This document shows positions 20,621 through 59,643 of a DNA stretch of 64,000 nt, piece by piece (positions within the stretch are counted from its first letter, which is position 1; each line of letters starts with the position of its first letter). The notes beneath the pieces are model-generated. The model did no database searches, was not told the DNA's origin, and worked only from the letters and a program-made list of their open reading frames with translations. The stretch covers positions 4,933 through 68,932 of the forward strand of contig CAKOSX010000005.1 in NCBI GenBank assembly GCA_934119935.1, written 5' to 3'. The position numbers and the translations under genes were made by a program. Source of the stretch: an uncultured Clostridia bacterium (GTDB lineage Bacteria; Bacillota; Clostridia; TANB77; CAG-508).

Positions 20621-20926
20621 ACTTTATATTATTCATTTAAGTTATATATAAAGTTCTAGTTTTTCTTTCTGTTCTGGTGCCATCGAGGTAGTTATCTACA
20701 ACTTTTTGGCTCTCATAACGATTGAGACAAATATCAATCAATTTATATATAAATTAACAGATTTTTTTATAAAAATCAAGAAATTTTATAAAAAAATCTT
20801 GCGAAATTTTGTTTCTTTTATATTGATTAATTTTAAATTCTATGTTATACTAGCTGACATAGGAAATGATGATAAGCAGATGTGGTTTTGCCACCAATTA
20901 TACGAAATATCGTAAGAGAGGTGGTG

Positions 20927-21046
20927 ATGTTTATGGTTAAAGTGATACTATTTTTTATAATATCATTTATGTTATCTTTAACATTAAACGTTGCCTTGAC
21001 AGCAGTTCTGTATAAGAACTGGGTTGATAAGCAACTACATAAATAA
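20927..21046 (+). CDS. small hydrophobic peptide, type I toxin-like (39 aa, or 37 aa from the second ATG)
   Basis: GAGGTGGTG SD. MFMVKVILFFIISFMLSLTLNVALTAVLYKNWVDKQLHK has a single TM helix and a basic tail. A paralogue lies at 59271-59372. Confidence 0.6.
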   Translation: MFMVKVILFFIISFMLSLTLNVALTAVLYKNWVDKQLHK

Positions 21047-21049
21047 AAA

Positions 21050-21135
21050 AGCTCACATCTGTAACTTTGGCGAGTTAGGTGTGAGTTTTTACAACTAATT
21101 TCGGCAAAACCACGTTTGTGGGTTTGTCATTTCCT
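21050..21135 (-). ncRNA. predicted antisense (antitoxin-like) RNA convergent with the peptide gene
   Basis: Minus-strand promoter TTGACT-17-TATAAT (21170-21142). The start lies near AGGAAATGAC, and the RNA shares the bidirectional hairpin at 21050-21085. Confidence 0.45.
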
Positions 21136-21190
21136 ATATTTATTATACACAGATATTTAAGAAAAGTCAAATAAAATTTCGCAATTAAAA

Positions 21191-25198: not shown

Positions 25199-25560
25199 TG
25201 GTGGAGATGAGGGGAGTTGAACCCCTGTCCAATATTCTTTCCATATACGTTTCTCCGAGTGCAGTTTGTTATTTAATTTTCCCTGTAAAATTCATTAACA
25301 AACAAACGGATTTTACAAGTAACCATTTGTTTTACCTACTGTTTTAATGGCTAAAACAGTGTTGTTATCCTACTAATTGACGCCTTATCTAAGACCGTAG
25401 GCCTTCTTAGTAAGACGGGCCGCCTAAGCTTAGGCAGCGTATGCTAATTCTGTATTATCAGCGTTTATTTTTATTTCTGCTTTTTTATAGTGGCCGAAGC
25501 AGCCATCCACTACTCGCTACATATACTTCTGGGATACTGTCGAAAACCAAATACATCCCC
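25199..25560 (-). ncRNA. ssrA: transfer-messenger RNA (tmRNA)
   Basis: The 5' end GGGGATGTATTTGGTTTTCGACAG pairs with the 3' end CATCTCCACCA. T-arm AGGGGTTCAACTCCCCT. Tag reading frame GCT GAT AAT ACA GAA TTA GCA TAC GCT GCC TAA encodes ADNTELAYAA. Confidence 0.93.
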
Positions 25561-25769: not shown

Positions 25770-26885
25770 ATGAATCAAAAAGAATTAGTTAATCCTAGCG
25801 CCGTTCCGACTCTCAAGTTTCGGAGTAAGTTTTTAAGGTTGTTTGAGACCTTATCCGAGAGCACTCAAAAGGAGTTGTACTCGATTATCGAGAAATTTGT
25901 AAACGAGCAGAATGACGTGTATGCAGCCGACATCCTGTGGAAGATTACTTATAACTGTTTTTGGGGGCTTAGCATTCTTGGTCTGAAGGTAAAGGATGAA
26001 ATCTTTAAAGACATCCTTGTTCTTGAGGAGAAATACCGTTCTCCTCACGCAAGGCCGCTCGAGATTCCTCCTGAACTTGTGACACCACTTAAGAACGAAC
26101 TTAGGTTTCAGCGGAAAAAATTTCATCCAGATTTTCTAATTGTTCATTTCCCTGAGGAATGTGAACAACCTTTCAAGAAGCTTTTGGATGCTTCTGCCGA
26201 TCCAGTTCTAACATACGTCGCATGTTATCATTGTTACGATGTTTGTTACTTATCCAATGAGCAGGAAGTTGAAAGAATTCTATTCCTGCTAAAAAGCAAA
26301 GTTAAAGAGAACGTATTTGGTGGAATCCGAAGCTTGAAGTTTAGTTACGAACAGGCTCAATATTTCATGAAGTTAGCACCTTACATTGCTAACTATCTGG
26401 AAGCTCTTTGGCAATCAATTCTTCCAGAAAAAGAACCTGTTTTGAACACCCCGCTTGCAGCTCCGCTCGAAGCATGGCGTGATTCTCACTCCGAAGCACT
26501 ATCGTCTGATGAGCTTCCTTTTGATGAAAGCTCTGCCGAAGAAGTTTTTGGCGAGAACAACTCCACACAACAACCTGCTATGGATGAAATGCCCGAGGAC
26601 ATTGATGAGTCTCTCCAATCTCAGCTATCTTGCCTAAAATCAGCACTTTCTGTTGATTTAGTGGCAAAAAGACCTCTGTCTGTGCACAATATTCTTTCAG
26701 ACAGAGAGCTTTTCCAAAAGCTGTTGGAAAAGGCCTACGATGACTCTTTCAAAAAGTCACTAGGCGAGTTTGCTCAGATTGTGTATGCTCTAAAAAGCAG
26801 GGGCTACGATTACAAAGAGGCAATTGTTGTTTTACCCAGAATCGAAGCAATAATTGGTTCCATGTCTATTCTGGAAGGGGCTTAA
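25770..26885 (+). CDS. hypothetical protein (371 aa) with an acidic, probably disordered central segment; compositionally foreign
   Basis: AAGGAG SD. G+C is visibly higher than in surrounding genes. Followed by a strong hairpin terminator. No family recognised. Confidence 0.6.
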   Translation: MNQKELVNPSAVPTLKFRSKFLRLFETLSESTQKELYSIIEKFVNEQNDVYAADILWKITYNCFWGLSILGLKVKDEIFKDILVLEEKYRSPHARPLEIPPELVTPLKNELRFQRKKFHPDFLIVHFPEECEQPFKKLLDASADPVLTYVACYHCYDVCYLSNEQEVERILFLLKSKVKENVFGGIRSLKFSYEQAQYFMKLAPYIANYLEALWQSILPEKEPVLNTPLAAPLEAWRDSHSEALSSDELPFDESSAEEVFGENNSTQQPAMDEMPEDIDESLQSQLSCLKSALSVDLVAKRPLSVHNILSDRELFQKLLEKAYDDSFKKSLGEFAQIVYALKSRGYDYKEAIVVLPRIEAIIGSMSILEGA

Positions 26886-56305: not shown

Positions 56306-57394
56306 TTATACATTAAATTTAAATAATACTATATCTCCATCTTGCATTACATATTCTTTACCTTCTGAACGAACTAATCCTTTTTCTTTTGCAGCTGTCA
56401 TCGAGCCTTCTCTCATTAAATCTTCATAAGAAACTATTTCTGCTCTAATGAATCCTCTTTCAATGTCTGAGTGAATTTTTCCTGCAGCCTGTGGAGCTTT
56501 TGTTCCTTTCTTTATTGTCCAAGCTCTTACTTCTGGCTCTCCAGCTGTTAAGAATGACATTAATCCAAGTAAATCATAGCTTGCCTTTATTACTTTATCT
56601 AGTCCAGATTCTTCCAAACCTAGTGCTTCTAGCATTTCTTTTTTATCATCGCCATCTAAGCTTGATAATTCTTCTTCTATTTTTACACAAAGCTTTATAA
56701 CTTCTGCCTTGTCTTGTTTTGCATATTCTTTTACACTATTTACATTTGCATCATTTTCATCTAATAATTGATCTTCTGAAACATTTGCAACATATAAAAT
56801 TGGCTTCATTGTTAATAAGAATCCATCCCTTACTATTTCTAGTTCTTCATCTGTATACTCCAAGCTTCTTGCTGGCTTGCCATTTTGCAAAGCATCTCTT
56901 ACTTTTTTCCATGTATCAAATTCTAATTGATATTTCTTATCACCTTTTATTAATTTACTTGCTCTATCAATTCTTTTTTCAACAGTCTCTAAATCTGCAA
57001 AAACTAGCTCTAAATTAATAGTTTCTATATCTCTTACTGGATTTATACTTCCATCAACATGTATTATGTTTGAATCTTCAAAACATCTTACAACTTGGCA
57101 AATTGCATCTGTTTCTCTTATATGAGATAAAAACTTATTTCCTAATCCTTCACCTTTGCTTGCTCCTTTTACCAAACCTGCTATATCCACAAATTCAATT
57201 ACAGCATGTGTAACCTTTTGAGGATTATACATCTTTGCTAGGTTGTCCAATCTCTCGTCTGGCACTGGAACTACTCCAACATTTGGTTCTATTGTACAGA
57301 ATGGATAATTTGCACATTCTGCTCCTGCATTTGTTATTGCATTAAATAAAGTACTCTTTCCTACATTTGGAAGTCCTACAATTCCTATTTTCAT
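56306..57394 (-). CDS. ychF: redox-regulated ribosome-binding ATPase YchF
   Basis: GLPNVGKSTLFN G1 motif and a TGS-like C-terminus. Start set at MKIGIVG; the track ORF is extended upstream. Confidence 0.93.
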   Translation of the reverse strand: MKIGIVGLPNVGKSTLFNAITNAGAECANYPFCTIEPNVGVVPVPDERLDNLAKMYNPQKVTHAVIEFVDIAGLVKGASKGEGLGNKFLSHIRETDAICQVVRCFEDSNIIHVDGSINPVRDIETINLELVFADLETVEKRIDRASKLIKGDKKYQLEFDTWKKVRDALQNGKPARSLEYTDEELEIVRDGFLLTMKPILYVANVSEDQLLDENDANVNSVKEYAKQDKAEVIKLCVKIEEELSSLDGDDKKEMLEALGLEESGLDKVIKASYDLLGLMSFLTAGEPEVRAWTIKKGTKAPQAAGKIHSDIERGFIRAEIVSYEDLMREGSMTAAKEKGLVRSEGKEYVMQDGDIVLFKFNV

Positions 57395-57520
57395 TATATC
57401 TTCGACCTTTCTTTTTCTTATAGCTATTATAATATAACACAAATTATTACTTTTGGCAATTAATTTATTTAAGGTTCCATACCGGAACCCCAAATAGAAT
57501 TTTAAATATATTTTTCACTA

Positions 57521-58369
57521 TTATTTGAATAATTTATTAAACGTATTCTTTCCAACTATTCCATCTTGTGATAATCCATTTCTTTTTTGAAATTCTCGTA
57601 TCGCACTTTCTGTTGCAGGTCCGAATATTCCGTCTGCATTAATGTTAAATAATTTGCAAATAAGCATTGACTGAATTAGCCAAGTGATGTTTCCTTCTGC
57701 TCCTCTTCGAACATTTATGCAGGCATTGTAAGTGTTAGTTCCAAATATTCCATCGACTGCTAGTTTACTTCCAAACTGTTTATTTAATTCTGTTTGTAAT
57801 CCCTTCACCAATGCCTTCTTCGTCTCGTTTCCATAAATATTATCTACTGAAATATTTAAGCCATATTTTTCATTTAAAGAGGTTTGTATTGTAGCTATTT
57901 TTCCCTTTTCTTGGCTTGGTTTTGATACTCCTGTTTCATTTGAATTTGCTATTTGATCAAATGGAAAATTGTCACCCGGGCAATTTGTTGCATTTACATT
58001 TTTATGAACTTGTACTGTGTTTATTCCATATTTATTTTTTAAAAAATTTACAAGTTCTCTTCCAGCCTTAATCTCCTCCTCTTGCATTATTTCTTCCTTA
58101 TAATCTCCTTCAAAGCAAATTCCCAATGAATCATAATTTGCACCATATGCATGAGCTCCAACTTTATCCTCTGGACGAAGTCTATATATTGTGCCGTCTT
58201 TTCTTACCAGAAAGTGATATCCAGCTCCACTCCAACCGTTGCTTAAATGCCACCTGTGAATATCTTCAGCTGAGCACCTTTTTGCAGCAGCATGATGCAA
58301 AATTATTCTTTTAGTAGAGCTACGTGTATCCATTTGTTTAAAATTTAAATTTGTATTAATTATATTCAT
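57521..58369 (-). CDS. N-acetylmuramoyl-L-alanine amidase (Amidase_2/PGRP) with tandem peptidoglycan-binding repeats; endolysin-like
   Basis: The HHAA...GYHF...NCPG amidase_2 pattern plus PG_binding_1-like repeats (DGIFG...). Confidence 0.85.
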   Translation of the reverse strand: MNIINTNLNFKQMDTRSSTKRIILHHAAAKRCSAEDIHRWHLSNGWSGAGYHFLVRKDGTIYRLRPEDKVGAHAYGANYDSLGICFEGDYKEEIMQEEEIKAGRELVNFLKNKYGINTVQVHKNVNATNCPGDNFPFDQIANSNETGVSKPSQEKGKIATIQTSLNEKYGLNISVDNIYGNETKKALVKGLQTELNKQFGSKLAVDGIFGTNTYNACINVRRGAEGNITWLIQSMLICKLFNINADGIFGPATESAIREFQKRNGLSQDGIVGKNTFNKLFK

Positions 58370-58371
58370 AT

Positions 58372-58572
58372 TTATTTTTTCTCCCTATTGCTAATAGCCT
58401 TCTGACCAAGTAAATACGTACTTATTACACCTTGAACAACGGCTATTACTTGTACTATTTGAATCGCATATGGTATTGTTATTCCTTCTACAGCATTAAT
58501 TCCAGTAACCAAAGCACTAATAATTGCCAAAACATTTATTGTATATTTTGCTATTGTCTTAATCTTTTCCAT
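58372..58572 (-). CDS. putative holin (66 aa, two TM helices, basic C-terminus)
   Basis: Small membrane protein ending in NREKK. Its stop lies 2 nt before the amidase start. Confidence 0.6.
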   Translation of the reverse strand: MEKIKTIAKYTINVLAIISALVTGINAVEGITIPYAIQIVQVIAVVQGVISTYLLGQKAISNREKK

Positions 58573-58676
58573 ATTAAATCCTCCTAATATATTGTATTCG
58601 AGAATTTTTTTATTGAGACTATTTACACGAATTTAGATAAAAAATTTATTTTTTCATAATTTTCAATTGGAAATAT

Positions 58677-58705
58677 TTGACTTTTCCTGTAAAATATTGT
58701 ATAAT
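58677..58705 (+). promoter_or_regulatory. near-consensus sigma-A promoter (TTGACT-17-TATAAT) for the 72-aa ORF
   Basis: Read directly. It is followed by a ~90-nt leader containing two hairpins. Confidence 0.6.
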
Positions 58706-58798
58706 TTTGCCAGTAACATATTTTAATATGTGTTGCCTTCGAATATATACAGAGTTCGGAGGCACAATCCTCCGAACAATCACAAGGAGGAAGTTTTA

Positions 58799-59017
58799 AT
58801 GAAAGTATCGATGAATGACAAGGTCAAAGTCAAACTGAACAAGATCGGCGATGAATTGCTTCAAAAAGTTTTGGGAAGTTCTCAGGAGCTTCCCAAAAAG
58901 GATCCTGAGGGTTATACCGAAATGAAGTTTCTCTATCTCCTTAAGATGTTCGAGGATTTCGAATATCTGGGTGAGGTCAACAAGCCGTTTGACGGCGATG
59001 TTATTGTAATCGCATAA
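58799..59017 (+). CDS. hypothetical 72-aa protein, compositionally atypical
   Basis: AAGGAGG SD 8 nt before the ATG (MKVSMNDKVKV...). G+C is visibly higher than the flanks. Followed by a 16-bp-stem terminator. Confidence 0.55.
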   Translation: MKVSMNDKVKVKLNKIGDELLQKVLGSSQELPKKDPEGYTEMKFLYLLKMFEDFEYLGEVNKPFDGDVIVIA

Positions 59018-59054
59018 TTTCATTTCATGGTACAGGCCTTATCACATGTACCAC

Positions 59055-59108
59055 AACCACCAGCAGAGTTACTCATTTCAGAGCAACTCTGCTGGTGGTT
59101 TATTTTTT
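59055..59108 (+). terminator. strong rho-independent terminator
   Basis: AACCACCAGCAGAGTT/AACTCTGCTGGTGGTT stem followed by a T-run. Confidence 0.85.
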
Positions 59109-59151
59109 ATATAACTAGATTAAATTTATAACAAAAATCGTTGTCAAAAAA

Positions 59152-59180
59152 TTGACAAACAGATAATTAATGTATATAAT
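59152..59180 (+). promoter_or_regulatory. perfect consensus promoter (TTGACA-17-TATAAT) for the antisense RNA of type I module 2
   Basis: Read directly. The -35 hexamer lies within the palindrome TTGTCAAAAAATTGACAA. Confidence 0.7.
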
Positions 59181-59186
59181 AAATAT

Positions 59187-59270
59187 AGGAAATGAAAAAC
59201 CACAATCGTGGTTGCCACATATTATTGTAACAACACATCTGCTGGCCAAAGCAAAGATGTGTTGTTTTAT
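59187..59270 (+). ncRNA. predicted antisense (antitoxin-like) RNA of type I module 2
   Basis: It starts at AGGAAATGAAAAACCAC... six nt after the -10 and ends at the shared hairpin AACAACACATCT.../...AGATGTGTTGTT. Confidence 0.5.
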
Positions 59271-59372
59271 TTATTCCTTATTTGACAAAATTATGTATAT
59301 AATTGCTAATAAGGCTACGTTTATAGTAAGGGAAAATCCCAATGCATATATTAAAAATAATATAATACCCAT
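59271..59372 (-). CDS. small hydrophobic peptide, type I toxin-like (33 aa)
   Basis: GAGGTGGTG SD. MGIILFLIYALGFSLTINVALLAIIYIILSNKE shares the SLT(L/I)NVAL core with the peptide at 20927-21046. Confidence 0.6.
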   Translation of the reverse strand: MGIILFLIYALGFSLTINVALLAIIYIILSNKE

Positions 59373-59567
59373 AAACACCACCTCACTTTCCCATAGTATA
59401 TACTATGAAGTAAAGTGGCAACACACTTGCTTATCTCATTTCCTATATCAATTACTATACTATATATATTAATAAAAAACAAGCGAACACTAAAAATATA
59501 TGCATATTTTTTTATGTTAGATAAAATAAAAAAATTAAAGTTATATAAAACTCTAATTTTTTCATTC

Positions 59568-59643
59568 TGGAGCTAACAACCGGAATTGAACCGGTGACCT
59601 CAGCCTTACCAAGGCTGCGCTCTACCTACTGAGCTATGATAGC
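59568..59643 (-). tRNA. trnT: tRNA-Thr (anticodon GGU), encoded CCA end
   Basis: Manual cloverleaf: anticodon arm CAGCC-TTGGTAA-GGCTG, T-arm CCGGTTCAATTCCGG. One T-T mismatch in the acceptor stem. Confidence 0.85.

Follow-up and report, generated by a model that had tools for sequence, protein, structure and literature searches.

[quoted passage not shown] In par RNA I, an intramolecular stem-loop occludes the SD, the very 5' end is sequestered as well, and a bidirectional terminator is shared (PMC7472228). Among the Clostridia, type I systems have been described essentially only for C. difficile (PMC6563280), where small membrane peptides are matched by cis-antisense RNAs and some copies lie beside prophage DNA (PMC6563280, PMC7699646). 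Here we analyse a locus, module 2, from the genome of an uncultured Clostridia bacterium. Comparison with related sequences supports its membership of a large, unnamed type I toxin-antitoxin-like family in uncultured gut Clostridia.

The window (the whole 64,000-nt stretch of DNA that was analysed) contains module 2 and one paralogue (Table 1). A first-pass annotation had placed a promoter TTGTTT-17-TATAGT, a leader starting at AGGAAATGA, the SD GAGGTGGTG and a 33-aa ORF on the minus strand, and all of these were found in those places. Reading the sequence also confirmed the perfect plus-strand promoter TTGACA-17-TATAAT, with AGGAAATGAAAAACCACAATCGTGGTTGCCAC six nt after its -10. The proposed paralogy with a module 1 on the opposite strand holds as well, module 1 having been located at 20823-21170. 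The toxin 5' arm and the segment at 59185-59218 were recovered as an inverted repeat by a repeat search of the window, and the 32-nt start-motif pattern is expected 0.00 times in shuffles of the same DNA. Module 1 is of type A and module 2 falls within subfamilies B and C.

Table 1. Predicted features of module 2 and its paralogue, in window coordinates
Feature	Position	Strand	Remarks
Module 2, whole	59141-59500		toxin gene (-), antisense RNA gene (+), convergent
Toxin promoter -35, TTGTTT	59477-59482	-	read directly from sequence
Toxin promoter -10, TATAGT	59454-59459	-	17-nt spacer to -35; ends 9 nt before AGGAAATGA
Toxin leader start motif AGGAAATGA	59444-59436	-
Toxin mRNA 5' arm AUAGGAAAUGAGAUAAGCAAGUGUGUUGCCAC	59415-59446	-	holds terminal motif and GUUGCCAC block
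Leader hairpin P2 CAUAGUAUAUACUAUG	59392-59407	-	palindrome; enclosed by anti-SD:SD helix
SD GAGGTGGTG / GAGGUGGUG	59376-59384	-	predicted to be sequestered by upstream GCCAC(U)
Toxin-like ORF MGIILFLIYALGFSLTINVALLAIIYIILSNKE	59271-59372	-	33 aa + stop; ATG at 59372
Central hairpin	59229-59266	both	arms 59229-59240 and 59255-59266, 12 nt each, 100% complementary
Proposed 3' arm of read-through toxin mRNA	59185-59218	-	GUGGCAACCACGAUUGUGGUUUUUCAUUUCCUAU (TCAUUUCCU)
Antisense promoter TTGACA-17-TATAAT	59152-59180	+	TTGACA 59152-59157, TATAAT 59175-59180
Antisense start motif AGGAAATGAAAAACCACAATCGTGGTTGCCAC	59187-59218	+	begins six nt past -10
Antisense (antitoxin-like) RNA, ~86 nt	59187-59275	+	predicted from sequence; start A/UAGGAAAUGA
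Inverted repeat TTGTCAA-AAAA-TTGACAA	59141-59158		spans antisense -35
tRNA-Thr(ggt)	59568-59643	-	neighbour of module 2
Module 1, paralogous	20823-21170		toxin (+), opposite orientation to module 2
Module 1 toxin 5' motif	20861-20869	+
Module 1 toxin ORF MVKVILFFIISFMLSLTLNVALTAVLYKNWVDKQLHK	20933-21046	+
Module 1 antisense RNA start	21135	-	promoter TTGACT 21170-21165, TATAAT 21147-21142

Module 2 lies near a tRNA-Thr gene, as had been noted, and a lysis-gene remnant adjoins it, the sole phage-like trace beside the module. Several other readings of this region were rejected. The window is mostly core chromosome and does not hold a large prophage around module 2. A 100-aa plus-strand ORF (59170-59472) was dismissed as a true gene, an ORF of at least 80 aa being present there in just 16 of 123 modules, and a MITE-like element was dismissed because the promoter boxes (-35 and -10) fall beyond the inverted repeat and a flanking duplication was not visible. 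The suggestion that the palindrome over the antisense -35 could be an operator is not supported by comparison: the palindrome is found only in module 2 and the near-identical L001/L002 (2 of 123 unique sequences), and is probably a lineage-specific feature outside the family design.

The same architecture is found in at least 120 species-level genomes of uncultured Clostridia of the gut, the carriers coming from humans, chickens, rabbits and ruminants. The genome scan used the pattern ATAGGAAATGA-N235-265-TCATTTCCTAT, in which both arms stand 235-265 nt apart, and returned at least 120 genome loci where roughly 2 would be expected by a rough estimate; most loci were ascertained with a pattern that fixes 11 nt in both arms. 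In nearly all matched loci an SD and a 33-40-aa ORF follow at 68-82 nt from the motif on one strand only, and the full combination of SD, ATG and hydrophobic 33-40-aa ORF on one strand only is present in 126 of 127 loci (122 modules analysed). A profile search with the peptide alignment as query added 573 unnamed protein clusters. Searches of existing collections gave little: Pfam, NCBIfam and PHROGs contained no match to five peptide subtypes, with permissive E-values used for Pfam and NCBIfam, Rfam 15 placed nothing over the module at gathering score, and permissive Rfam scans gave sub-threshold hairpins only, the best being Spy779816 on the module 1 antisense RNA (26 vs 67 bits). Isolated phage genomes and plasmids yielded no match at the DNA or protein level (including tblastn, in which the low-complexity filter may hide hydrophobic peptides), and with looser DNA patterns on viral contigs 53 of 55 loci proved by tblastn to be chance matches, the real ones being L001 and L002 only. 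Our literature search found no paper describing the family.

Toxin promoters in the family are weak, with a mean of 8.9 out of 12 consensus matches (122 modules), and TTGTTT-17-TATAGT represents one recurrent class. Since the toxin -10 ends 9 nt before AGG, the toxin RNA probably begins 2-3 nt upstream of AGG. Within the leader, five base pairs of P2 co-vary (44 sequences), and at least 4/5 of the SD is paired in 99 of 102 unique leader MFEs. The anti-SD:SD helix undergoes compensatory changes, from GGUGG:CCACC to GGAGG:CCUCC and also GGCGG:CCGCC, with the GUUGCCAC block of the toxin 5' arm doubling as the anti-SD. These observations point to sequestration of the toxin SD in cis by an upstream anti-SD. 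The predicted module 2 peptide of 33 aa has ~29 hydrophobic residues, forming one hydrophobic helix, and ends in a short polar SNKE tail. ORF length is 33-40 aa in 121 of 122 modules, and 36-59% of single-nt codon differences are synonymous as against a neutral expectation of ~25%, supporting coding constraint on the toxin-like ORF. The family peptides contain no proline and no PXXXG motif.

All 122 modules have an antisense promoter that agrees with the consensus at 11 or more of 12 positions. The RNA that these promoters would produce begins with the same AGGAAATGA as the toxin leader and consists, in order, of a single-stranded AGGAAAUGA, hairpin 1 (59198-59213 in module 2), GUUGCCAC, a linker and the terminator hairpin; for module 2 the predicted fold has an energy of -26.5 kcal/mol (z = -3.6). 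Co-variation is seen in the 5' hairpin (CCAC/GUGG, CGCA/UGCG, CCGC/GCGG) and in 6 of 6 predicted pairs of the terminator hairpin. A role of AGGAAAUGA as a mini-ORF or as the SD of a 5' stabiliser was rejected by inspection: the variants AGGAAAUAA and AGAAAAUGA lose the AUG or the SD-like part and the arms still agree. Duplexes between the antisense RNA and the toxin leader/TIR were no better than shuffled controls (z +0.5 to -1.4).

In the antisense direction the central hairpin is consistently T-rich, and in module 2, where it lies just past the toxin stop codon, it is followed by a T-rich tract (59267-59277); on the toxin strand it is a structured element that lacks a T-run. The shared hairpin proposed at first is present and would make a good antisense terminator; its reading as a bidirectional terminator is not supported in the module 2 subfamily, where the toxin-direction T-run is absent. 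Runs of four or more T in the toxin direction are present in 45 of 122 modules overall, in 3 of 36 in subfamilies B and C and in 32 of 58 in type A. About a third of modules, mostly type A and including module 1, have a usable run of this kind past the central hairpin, and in these many toxin transcripts may end before the 3' arm. A YUNR-like UUUG is seen in the loop of the central hairpin in 57 of 103 sequences when read in the toxin sense, compared to 12 of 103 in the antisense sense. The two loci had been read at first as a type I toxin-antitoxin-like functional family, and the architecture kept in the 122 analysed modules, with its promoters, hairpins, predicted SD locking and ORF constraint, supports that reading.

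The first ~34 nt of the toxin mRNA and of the antisense RNA are near copies of each other. The inner block switches jointly in both arms, through GUGGUUUUGCC, GUGGUUUGCC, GUUGCCAC, GUGCUACCA, GUUAGCCA, GUGUUUCCAC and others, and variant terminal motifs are likewise present in both arms (AGGAAAUAA in L060, AGAAAAUGA in L177 and L178). In a metagenome scan that used only the toxin arm (AGAAAATGA) for selection, the matching change in the antisense arm was present in 19 of 20 readable modules. In a formal count, 89.8% of arm cells are paired vs 80.6% in shuffles (0 of 500 reach 89.8%) and changes on both sides occur at 14 of 25 pairs. Slid controls give 41-45%. The sequences are phylogenetically related, and the counts do not equal independent events. 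Lack of compensatory variation between the two repeat arms, 5' and 3', had been set beforehand as grounds for refutation; such variation is present across copies.

Concerted evolution of a DNA inverted repeat could in principle produce such co-variation. The differences between the arms are, however, asymmetric with respect to strand. Transitions giving G·U number 266 on the toxin strand vs 51 on the other, and the arm duplex is more stable on the toxin strand in 94 of 95 unique pairs (-39.4 vs -29.4 kcal/mol). In fixed-register constructs, the share of G·U cells is 6.3% for the toxin strand compared with 1.6% for its mirror; paired cells differ modestly (89.7% vs 85.0%). The strand asymmetry and the G·U pairs on the toxin strand suggest that toxin transcription continues past the central hairpin and that the 5' and 3' ends of the mRNA pair with each other. 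Folding of the full-length module 2 toxin-strand RNA (262 nt) gave an MFE of -85.6 kcal/mol (z = -7.3) with paired ends, the partners of the 5' arm being the 3' arm and the ascending strand of the central hairpin, and in MFEs from all subfamilies 23-30 of the first 36 nt are paired with the last 40 nt. The models thus predict a long-distance 5'-3' interaction in the full-length toxin mRNA.

In the mechanism that we propose, the weak promoter would give rise to an mRNA for a single-helix hydrophobic peptide, its SD held in the anti-SD helix around P2, and the convergent near-consensus promoter would yield an antisense RNA of ~86 nt ending at the central hairpin terminator. The toxin transcript would run on past the central hairpin and take in the complement of the antisense gene, and its 5' arm would pair with its own 3' arm to form a 5'-3' clamp. 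With both ends hidden, the message would be stable and poorly translated. Since the antisense RNA is fully complementary to the 3' region and has the same sequence as the toxin 5' arm, it would compete for the 3' arm and form a duplex of ~85 bp with the toxin 3' region. It is tempting to speculate that RNase III cuts this duplex and that the unclamped message is then degraded; once synthesis of the short-lived antisense RNA ceases, toxin mRNA in its clamped form might persist and be slowly activated, and the membrane peptide could halt growth or kill the cell. As a whole, a type I toxin-antitoxin-like family with a 5'-3' clamp and a competing antisense RNA is the best explanation of the sequence patterns, and one that we consider rather probable. 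More tentatively, at somewhat less than even confidence, we suggest that the antitoxin RNA is a mimic of the toxin mRNA 5' end which opens the clamp rather than covering the ribosome-binding site, in a multi-copy, chromosomal and co-evolving arrangement.

A type I pair without a clamp seems unlikely, although it is the alternative to be taken most seriously. Here the toxin mRNA would stop at the central hairpin, the RNAs would overlap by ~40-45 nt, and arm similarity would be maintained at the DNA level, either by concerted evolution or gene conversion of the inverted repeat or by one host factor needed at both promoters or initial transcribed regions. The frequent T-run in both directions at the type A hairpin would fit, as would the use of a shared bidirectional terminator by par/Fst-type loci (PMC7472228). 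The 9-11-nt terminal motif is also extremely conserved and not freely variable, the scanned loci having been selected for it. Gene conversion or a common protein site nevertheless predicts zero strand bias, in conflict with the 266:51 and 94/95 reported above, and the toxin-direction T-run is absent in subfamilies B and C. Moreover, AGG/AGG and AGA/AGA arms occur on nearly identical peptides (L107 vs L187) and even adjacent in one contig (L060). As both kinds of arm exist, one host factor must accept both; yet mixed arms are rare (1 of 20).

That the ORF encodes a non-toxic small membrane protein, e.g., a regulator or accessory subunit, with an ordinary cis-antisense RNA and no addiction, we regard as improbable. 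Many small hydrophobic proteins are harmless, and the module peptide is a putative toxin. The flanks consist of ordinary chromosomal genes (163 Pfam families among 143 neighbours) with no mobile-element bias, which favours this reading. On the other hand, the module behaves as a self-contained unit of ~320 bp: it turns up in unrelated genomic settings, genomes can carry several copies, and tandem arrays occur. A tRNA or tmRNA gene is found no more than 600 nt away in 19 of 127 modules. Broken toxins beside a surviving antisense gene or arm (L121, L123, L201/L224; a frameshift in L076) are expected of a toxic gene, and the strong antisense promoter, weak toxin promoter and apparently doubly locked SD correspond to the known type I design (PMC8594479, PMC7472228). 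Membership of a divergent Fst/par (RNA I/RNA II) lineage is highly improbable and already contradicted on two defining features, for although convergent promoters, a common central terminator hairpin, a 33-aa peptide, the YUNR-like loop and, as in par, an SD in an intramolecular stem-loop with the extreme 5' end sequestered (PMC7472228) are all shared, the repeats are inverted instead of direct and the 5' regions of the two RNAs identical instead of complementary, antisense-to-TIR complementarity is never above shuffled controls, and the peptides lack a PXXXG(C) motif and fail to match Pfam Fst even at E <= 1.

The toxin-antitoxin-like family, abundant in uncultured gut Clostridia, is invisible to current protein and RNA family libraries, and its natural sequence variation suffices to read out a candidate RNA mechanism in which a message clamps itself and an antitoxin copies its 5' end. 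If true, this would be a third way to couple mRNA folding with antisense control, beside the hok/AapA and par designs, and would bring to type I toxin-antitoxin systems a regulatory topology that is new, one present in hundreds of uncultured Clostridia of the gut. It could also improve the annotation of thousands of 'hypothetical' 33-40-aa ORFs and offer a compact ~330-bp module for counter-selection or RNA devices in Clostridia.

Compared to par (Enterococcus faecalis pAD1, and the Fst-like loci of Firmicutes), the module has the same convergent promoters, a toxin mRNA of ~200-260 nt with a short antisense RNA, a shared central hairpin, a hydrophobic toxin of ~33 aa and an SD in an intramolecular stem-loop. 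The direct repeats DRa/DRb of par allow its antisense RNA to pair with the toxin start region, whereas the repeats of the module are inverted, so that the 5' region of the antisense RNA duplicates that of the toxin mRNA, its only complement being the 3' region of the toxin strand. The proposed clamp would be functionally similar to the 5' upstream helix of par RNA I, but the 5' end would have the far 3' end as its partner in the module, and has a nearby upstream segment in par. Long-distance 5'-3' closure, predicted here and backed by co-variation, is reminiscent of hok/Sok (plasmid R1) and aapA1/IsoA1 (Helicobacter pylori), as are the sequestered SD and a message that is stable but inert by design. 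In contrast to the module, where the antisense RNA lies opposite the 3' end, the antitoxins of those systems pair with the 5' leader of a 3'-processed mRNA; their hosts are Gram-negative, and their toxins have no sequence similarity to the module peptides, which have no Pfam match. With the CD toxins and RCd antitoxins of C. difficile, the module has in common a clostridial host, a small membrane peptide, a cis-antisense RNA and, for some copies, prophage DNA alongside. The C. difficile toxins, reported at 34-59 aa, mostly exceed the module peptides in length and have lysine-rich tails, the module promoters are sigma-70-like and not SigB-type, and no similarity to those toxins was found by tblastn against phage genomes, nor any Pfam family in common.

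The layout of the module agrees with that of txpA/RatA, bsrG/SR4, bsrE/SR5 and yonT/SR6 (Bacillus subtilis) and of sprA1/SprA1AS and sprG/SprF (Staphylococcus aureus), in which convergent genes overlap at their 3' ends and the toxin, a small and hydrophobic peptide, carries a polar tail; in the module family, too, some copies adjoin an integration hot spot or the remnant of a prophage. No similarity to the Firmicutes toxin families just named was found, and to our knowledge a duplicated 5' arm with a 5'-3' clamp has not been described for these 3'-overlapping Firmicutes systems. SprA1AS works in trans on the toxin start region via its non-overlapping 5' domain; unlike it, the antisense 5' domain of the module has no complementarity to the toxin SD or start codon above shuffles. 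As in the 3'-overlapping Firmicutes systems, the antisense RNA of the module would probably act through degradation of the duplex formed at the 3' end.

The first-pass annotation described module 2 as a type I toxin-antitoxin-like locus with a gene for a 33-aa peptide and a convergent antisense promoter, and all of its elements were found within 59141-59500 of the window, which has a G+C content of 31% and is clostridial in appearance. The start motif had 0.00 matches in shuffled sequences, hence is not expected by chance, and no third module copy was detected in the window. The suggestion that a palindrome at the antisense -35 could be an operator gained no support, as this palindrome is limited to module 2's own lineage.

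Features of module 2 and its surroundings (window numbering; L001 and L002 are IMG/VR contigs with near-identical copies of module 2)
Feature	Position	Strand	Remark
Module 1 (paralogue)	20823-21170		toxin on plus
Phage-derived cassette	56306-58572	minus	embedded in core chromosome right after hrcA-grpE-dnaK-dnaJ
95-aa ORF	58730-59017	plus	kept in L001 and L002 directly upstream of module 2
Strong 20-bp hairpin terminator	59055-59100		after 95-aa ORF
Antisense promoter -35, TTGACA	59152-59157	plus	17-nt spacer to -10
Antisense promoter -10, TATAAT	59175-59180	plus
Antisense RNA 5' sequence, AGGAAATGAAAAACCACAATCGTGGTTGCCAC	59187-59218	plus	6 nt 3' of -10
Central hairpin, perfect 12 bp	59229-59240 with 59255-59266		T-rich tract next, plus-strand direction
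Toxin ORF, 33 codons, MGIILFLIYALGFSLTINVALLAIIYIILSNKE	ATG 59372, stop codon end 59271	minus
Toxin SD, GAGGTGGTG	59384-59376	minus
Leader hairpin, 16 nt	59407-59392	minus
Toxin RNA start motif, AGGAAATGAGATAAGCAAGTGTGTTGCCAC	from 59444	minus	9 nt 3' of -10
Toxin promoter -10, TATAGT	59459-59454	minus
Toxin promoter -35, TTGTTT	59482-59477	minus	17-nt spacer to -10
tRNA-Thr	59568-59643	minus

A GTDB scan of one genome per species with the pattern ATAGGAAATGA-N235-265-TCATTTCCTAT returned at least 120 loci with both arms, so that module 2 belongs to a family and is not a coincidence. The hosts of the listed loci are nearly all MAGs of uncultured gut Clostridia (humans, chickens, rabbits, goats, deer). 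Essentially every listed locus carries, on one strand only and 68-82 nt past the motif, an SD, an ATG and a hydrophobic ORF of 33-40 aa, the exceptions being one locus without an ORF and one that is frameshifted. The peptides sort into five subtypes that are related to one another, with type B for module 2 and type A for module 1, and their profile retrieved 573 clusters at E ≤ 0.01 from 5.8 billion proteins, none with a name or Pfam domain. Pfam, NCBIfam and PHROGs gave no match to the peptides, collections of isolated phages and plasmids no match to the module, and Rfam no match at the gathering score, only sub-threshold hairpin matches. We found no description of the family in the literature; the review that deals with type I systems in clostridia treats C. 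difficile and, in addition, a few matches of the Fst or TxpA type (PMC6563280). The module 1 antisense RNA (21045-21133, minus) matches Rfam RF02589, the S. pyogenes sRNA Spy779816, over its full length, terminator loop UCGCCAAA included, at a sub-threshold 26 bits versus a gathering score of 67, which is probably generic hairpin similarity.

Promoters and coding pattern indicate that both genes are real. In all 122 modules analysed, 11 or more of the 12 consensus positions are matched by the antisense promoter, with a spacing of 17±1 and the -10 ending 6 nt before AGG, whereas the toxin promoter averages 8.9 of 12 matches and occurs in several interchangeable classes. A strong antitoxin promoter and a weak toxin promoter are typical of type I systems. 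In many genomes the left end of homology to module 1 coincides exactly with the toxin RNA 5' end (window 20857) and the toxin promoter classes upstream differ (TAGACA-17-TAGAAT, TTGATT-17-TATACT, TTGTTT-17-TATAGT), as if promoters had been swapped in front of a conserved transcribed unit. The toxin ORF is 33-40 aa long in 121/122 modules, and within subtypes 36-59% of the codon differences at a single nucleotide are synonymous, against a neutral expectation of roughly 25%. A long ORF on the antisense strand (100 aa in the window) was rejected as unconserved, being present in 16/123 modules.

RNAalifold, run on a plain MAFFT alignment of 44 diverse toxin leaders, predicted a hairpin just 5' of the SD, with double changes at all five pairs (5-18 sequences each). 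A helix between a GCCAC(C/U) block and the SD surrounds this hairpin, varying from GGUGG:CCACC to GGAGG:CCUCC or GGCGG:CCGCC, and when the 102 unique leaders are folded one by one, the SD is sequestered in 99. The predicted antisense RNA opens with an unpaired 5' motif; next come a short co-varying hairpin (CCAC/GUGG, CACA/UGUG, CGCA/UGCG, CCGC/GCGG), a linker and the terminator, where 6/6 pairs co-vary. For the antisense RNA of module 2 the folding energy is -26.5 kcal/mol (z = -3.6).

The first ~34 nt of the toxin and antisense RNAs (the arms) are near copies and form an inverted repeat in the DNA. The annotation had proposed a search for compensatory changes between the 5' and 3' repeat arms, and these do occur: the inner block differs between subtypes and changes in both arms together (GUGGUUUUGCC, GUGGUUUGCC, GUUGCCAC, GUGCUACCA, GUUAGCCA, GUGUUUCCAC and others), although most loci were ascertained by the two-arm pattern and all counts are of related, phylogenetically non-independent sequences. 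Some modules were reached via the peptide instead of the motif, and these have a variant terminal motif in both arms (AGGAAAUAA in L060); both arms carry AGAAAAUGA in L177, L178 and L179, and the two terminal motifs of L067 are AAGAAAAUAAGG and UAGAAAACAAGG. A metagenome scan with the toxin arm alone fixed to AGAAAATGA yielded 22 real modules, 20 with a readable second arm, and the second arm showed the same G-to-A change in 19 of these 20. The double change is not a single inherited event, because AGG/AGG arms (L107) and AGA/AGA arms (L187) accompany peptides that are nearly identical. In a formal count over 64 distinct arm pairs, using fixed-register constructs of 25 pairs that omit the module middle and have 11 nt per arm fixed by ascertainment in most rows, 89.8% of cells were paired compared with 80.6% in shuffles, and 0/500 shuffles of these related sequences reached the observed 89.8%. 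Both sides had changed at 14 of the 25 pairs, the covariation score was 0.277 versus 0.123, and slid-register controls were 41-45% paired.

Identical 5' arms cannot pair mutually, and the toxin 5' arm has only one complement inside the module, namely the stretch of toxin strand that faces the antisense 5' arm. Arm-to-arm transitions give G·U on the toxin strand in 266 cases versus 51 on the other strand, a bias with the same direction in all five subtypes, and the G·U share in fixed register is 6.3% versus 1.6%. The arm duplex is more stable on the toxin strand in 94 of 95 unique arm pairs (-39.4 versus -29.4 kcal/mol), and cognate inner arms reach -25.6 kcal/mol versus -18.3 kcal/mol for non-cognate ones. 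Downstream of the central hairpin the sequence is T-rich in the antisense direction; in the toxin direction a T-run of at least 4 is present in only 45/122 modules and in 3/36 of subtypes B and C. In folds of full-length toxin-strand RNAs of every subtype, 23-30 of the first 36 nt pair with the last 40 nt, and the 262-nt module 2 RNA (-85.6 kcal/mol, z = -7.3) is predicted to form 13 terminal pairs while its SD remains sequestered. The strand asymmetry, the terminator asymmetry and the folding all point to an RNA helix on the toxin strand, from which we infer that the toxin transcript reads through and that its 5' arm is clamped to its 3' arm. A par- or SprA1-like interaction, in which the antisense RNA would bind around the toxin start, did not exceed shuffled controls.

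Several module copies lie on different contigs of one MAG, and tandem or clustered modules occur on one contig in L056, L137 and L060 (4197-6330). In L060, a pair of canonical type A modules and a single type D module lie within about 2 kb, the type D module having a variant AGGAAATAA motif in both arms. In decayed copies (L121 7200-7620, minus; L123 760-1250; L201/L224; L076 1130-1410) truncation or a frameshift has damaged the leader or ORF of the toxin, and what is retained is the antisense gene or, at a minimum, the antisense arm, with an antisense promoter that is intact in L121 and L123 and degenerate in L201/L224. Such a pattern would be expected if the toxin were harmful and the antitoxin were not.

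The window is core chromosome (hrcA-grpE-dnaK-dnaJ, priA, mutS2, FTHFS), and module 2 has tRNA-Thr on one side and a small group of phage-derived genes on the other. The cassette encodes a 395-aa protein matching PHROG_23947 (E = 7e-166, a function-unknown PHROG), an Amidase_2 and PG_binding_1 endolysin and a 66-aa holin-like ORF; the 95-aa ORF, which also belongs to this group of phage-derived genes, had no match in family databases. The endolysin, the holin, the 95-aa ORF and module 2 recur in L001 and L002 with 96.5-96.7% identity (window 57362-59586 versus L001 1-2224 and L002 7960-10024). The homology ends at 59586, 18 nt inside the tRNA-Thr 3' end, past which different phage genes follow in L001, among them a second endolysin (77% identity). 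This boundary resembles an att junction in a hot spot for integration at tRNA-Thr, and the homology stop inside the tRNA and the phage genes place module 2 beside such a hot spot and next to a prophage remnant, not within an intact prophage. Between genomes, homology is restricted to the module (about 320 bp), and the neighbouring genes are mixed: 143 of them span 163 Pfam families, and neither integrase nor phage genes are enriched. A tRNA or tmRNA gene lies within 600 nt of 19 of 127 modules (L056-L175, L001/L002 and the window). In L174 a distance of 116 nt separates a type B module from tmRNA, and this part of L174 is syntenic with the tmRNA/tRNA-Trp region of the window, where the tmRNA gene (tag ADNTELAYAA, 25199-25560) adjoins a 371-aa ORF (25770-26885, no Pfam match), with module 1 about 4 kb off. 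For a type A subset, homology reaches about 190 nt upstream of the toxin start (window 20665-20857, 5' of module 1; the same block in L070, L072, L073, L084, L085, L092, L112, L135, L160, L165 and L166). This block begins with TGG and a variable 7-mer resembling the complement of a tRNA 3' end, followed by a small hairpin (GTAG-TTAT-CTAC) and the conserved palindrome CGATTGATAcaaaTATCAATCAATT; it received no call from ARAGORN or Rfam and may be an att-like scar or an operator.

By sequence and comparison, the module comprises two convergent genes, a locked SD and co-varying arms with a toxin-strand bias. In the mechanism we propose, the toxin mRNA would read through the central hairpin, and its two ends would be clamped together. 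The antisense RNA matches the toxin 5' arm in sequence and is perfectly complementary to all of the toxin 3' region (about 85 nt), so it would displace the 5' arm; it is tempting to speculate that RNase III then cuts the duplex and that the message, once unclamped, is degraded. If antisense RNA were no longer replenished, the clamped message might persist and eventually be translated into a membrane-damaging peptide. In the toxin sense the central hairpin loop contains UUUG (YUNR-like) in 57/103 cases versus 12/103 in the other sense, by crude loop calling, and recalls the kissing-loop start of par (PMC7472228).

The layout is closest to par/Fst, which likewise combines convergent promoters with a central hairpin common to both genes, a toxin of 33 aa, a stem-loop at the SD and sequestration of the 5' end. 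Two features that define par/Fst are lacking: its repeats are direct where those of this family are inverted, and the PXXXG(C) motif of Fst is absent from the module peptide. The putative 5'-3' clamp is akin to that of hok and aapA1 (PMC5416894, PMC8594479), but their antitoxin targets the 5' leader. The 3' overlap is reminiscent of Bacillus and Staphylococcus systems (PMC6563280), whose toxins lack homology to the module peptides. We class the family as type I-like, set apart by a toxin family of its own and by the way it is wired.
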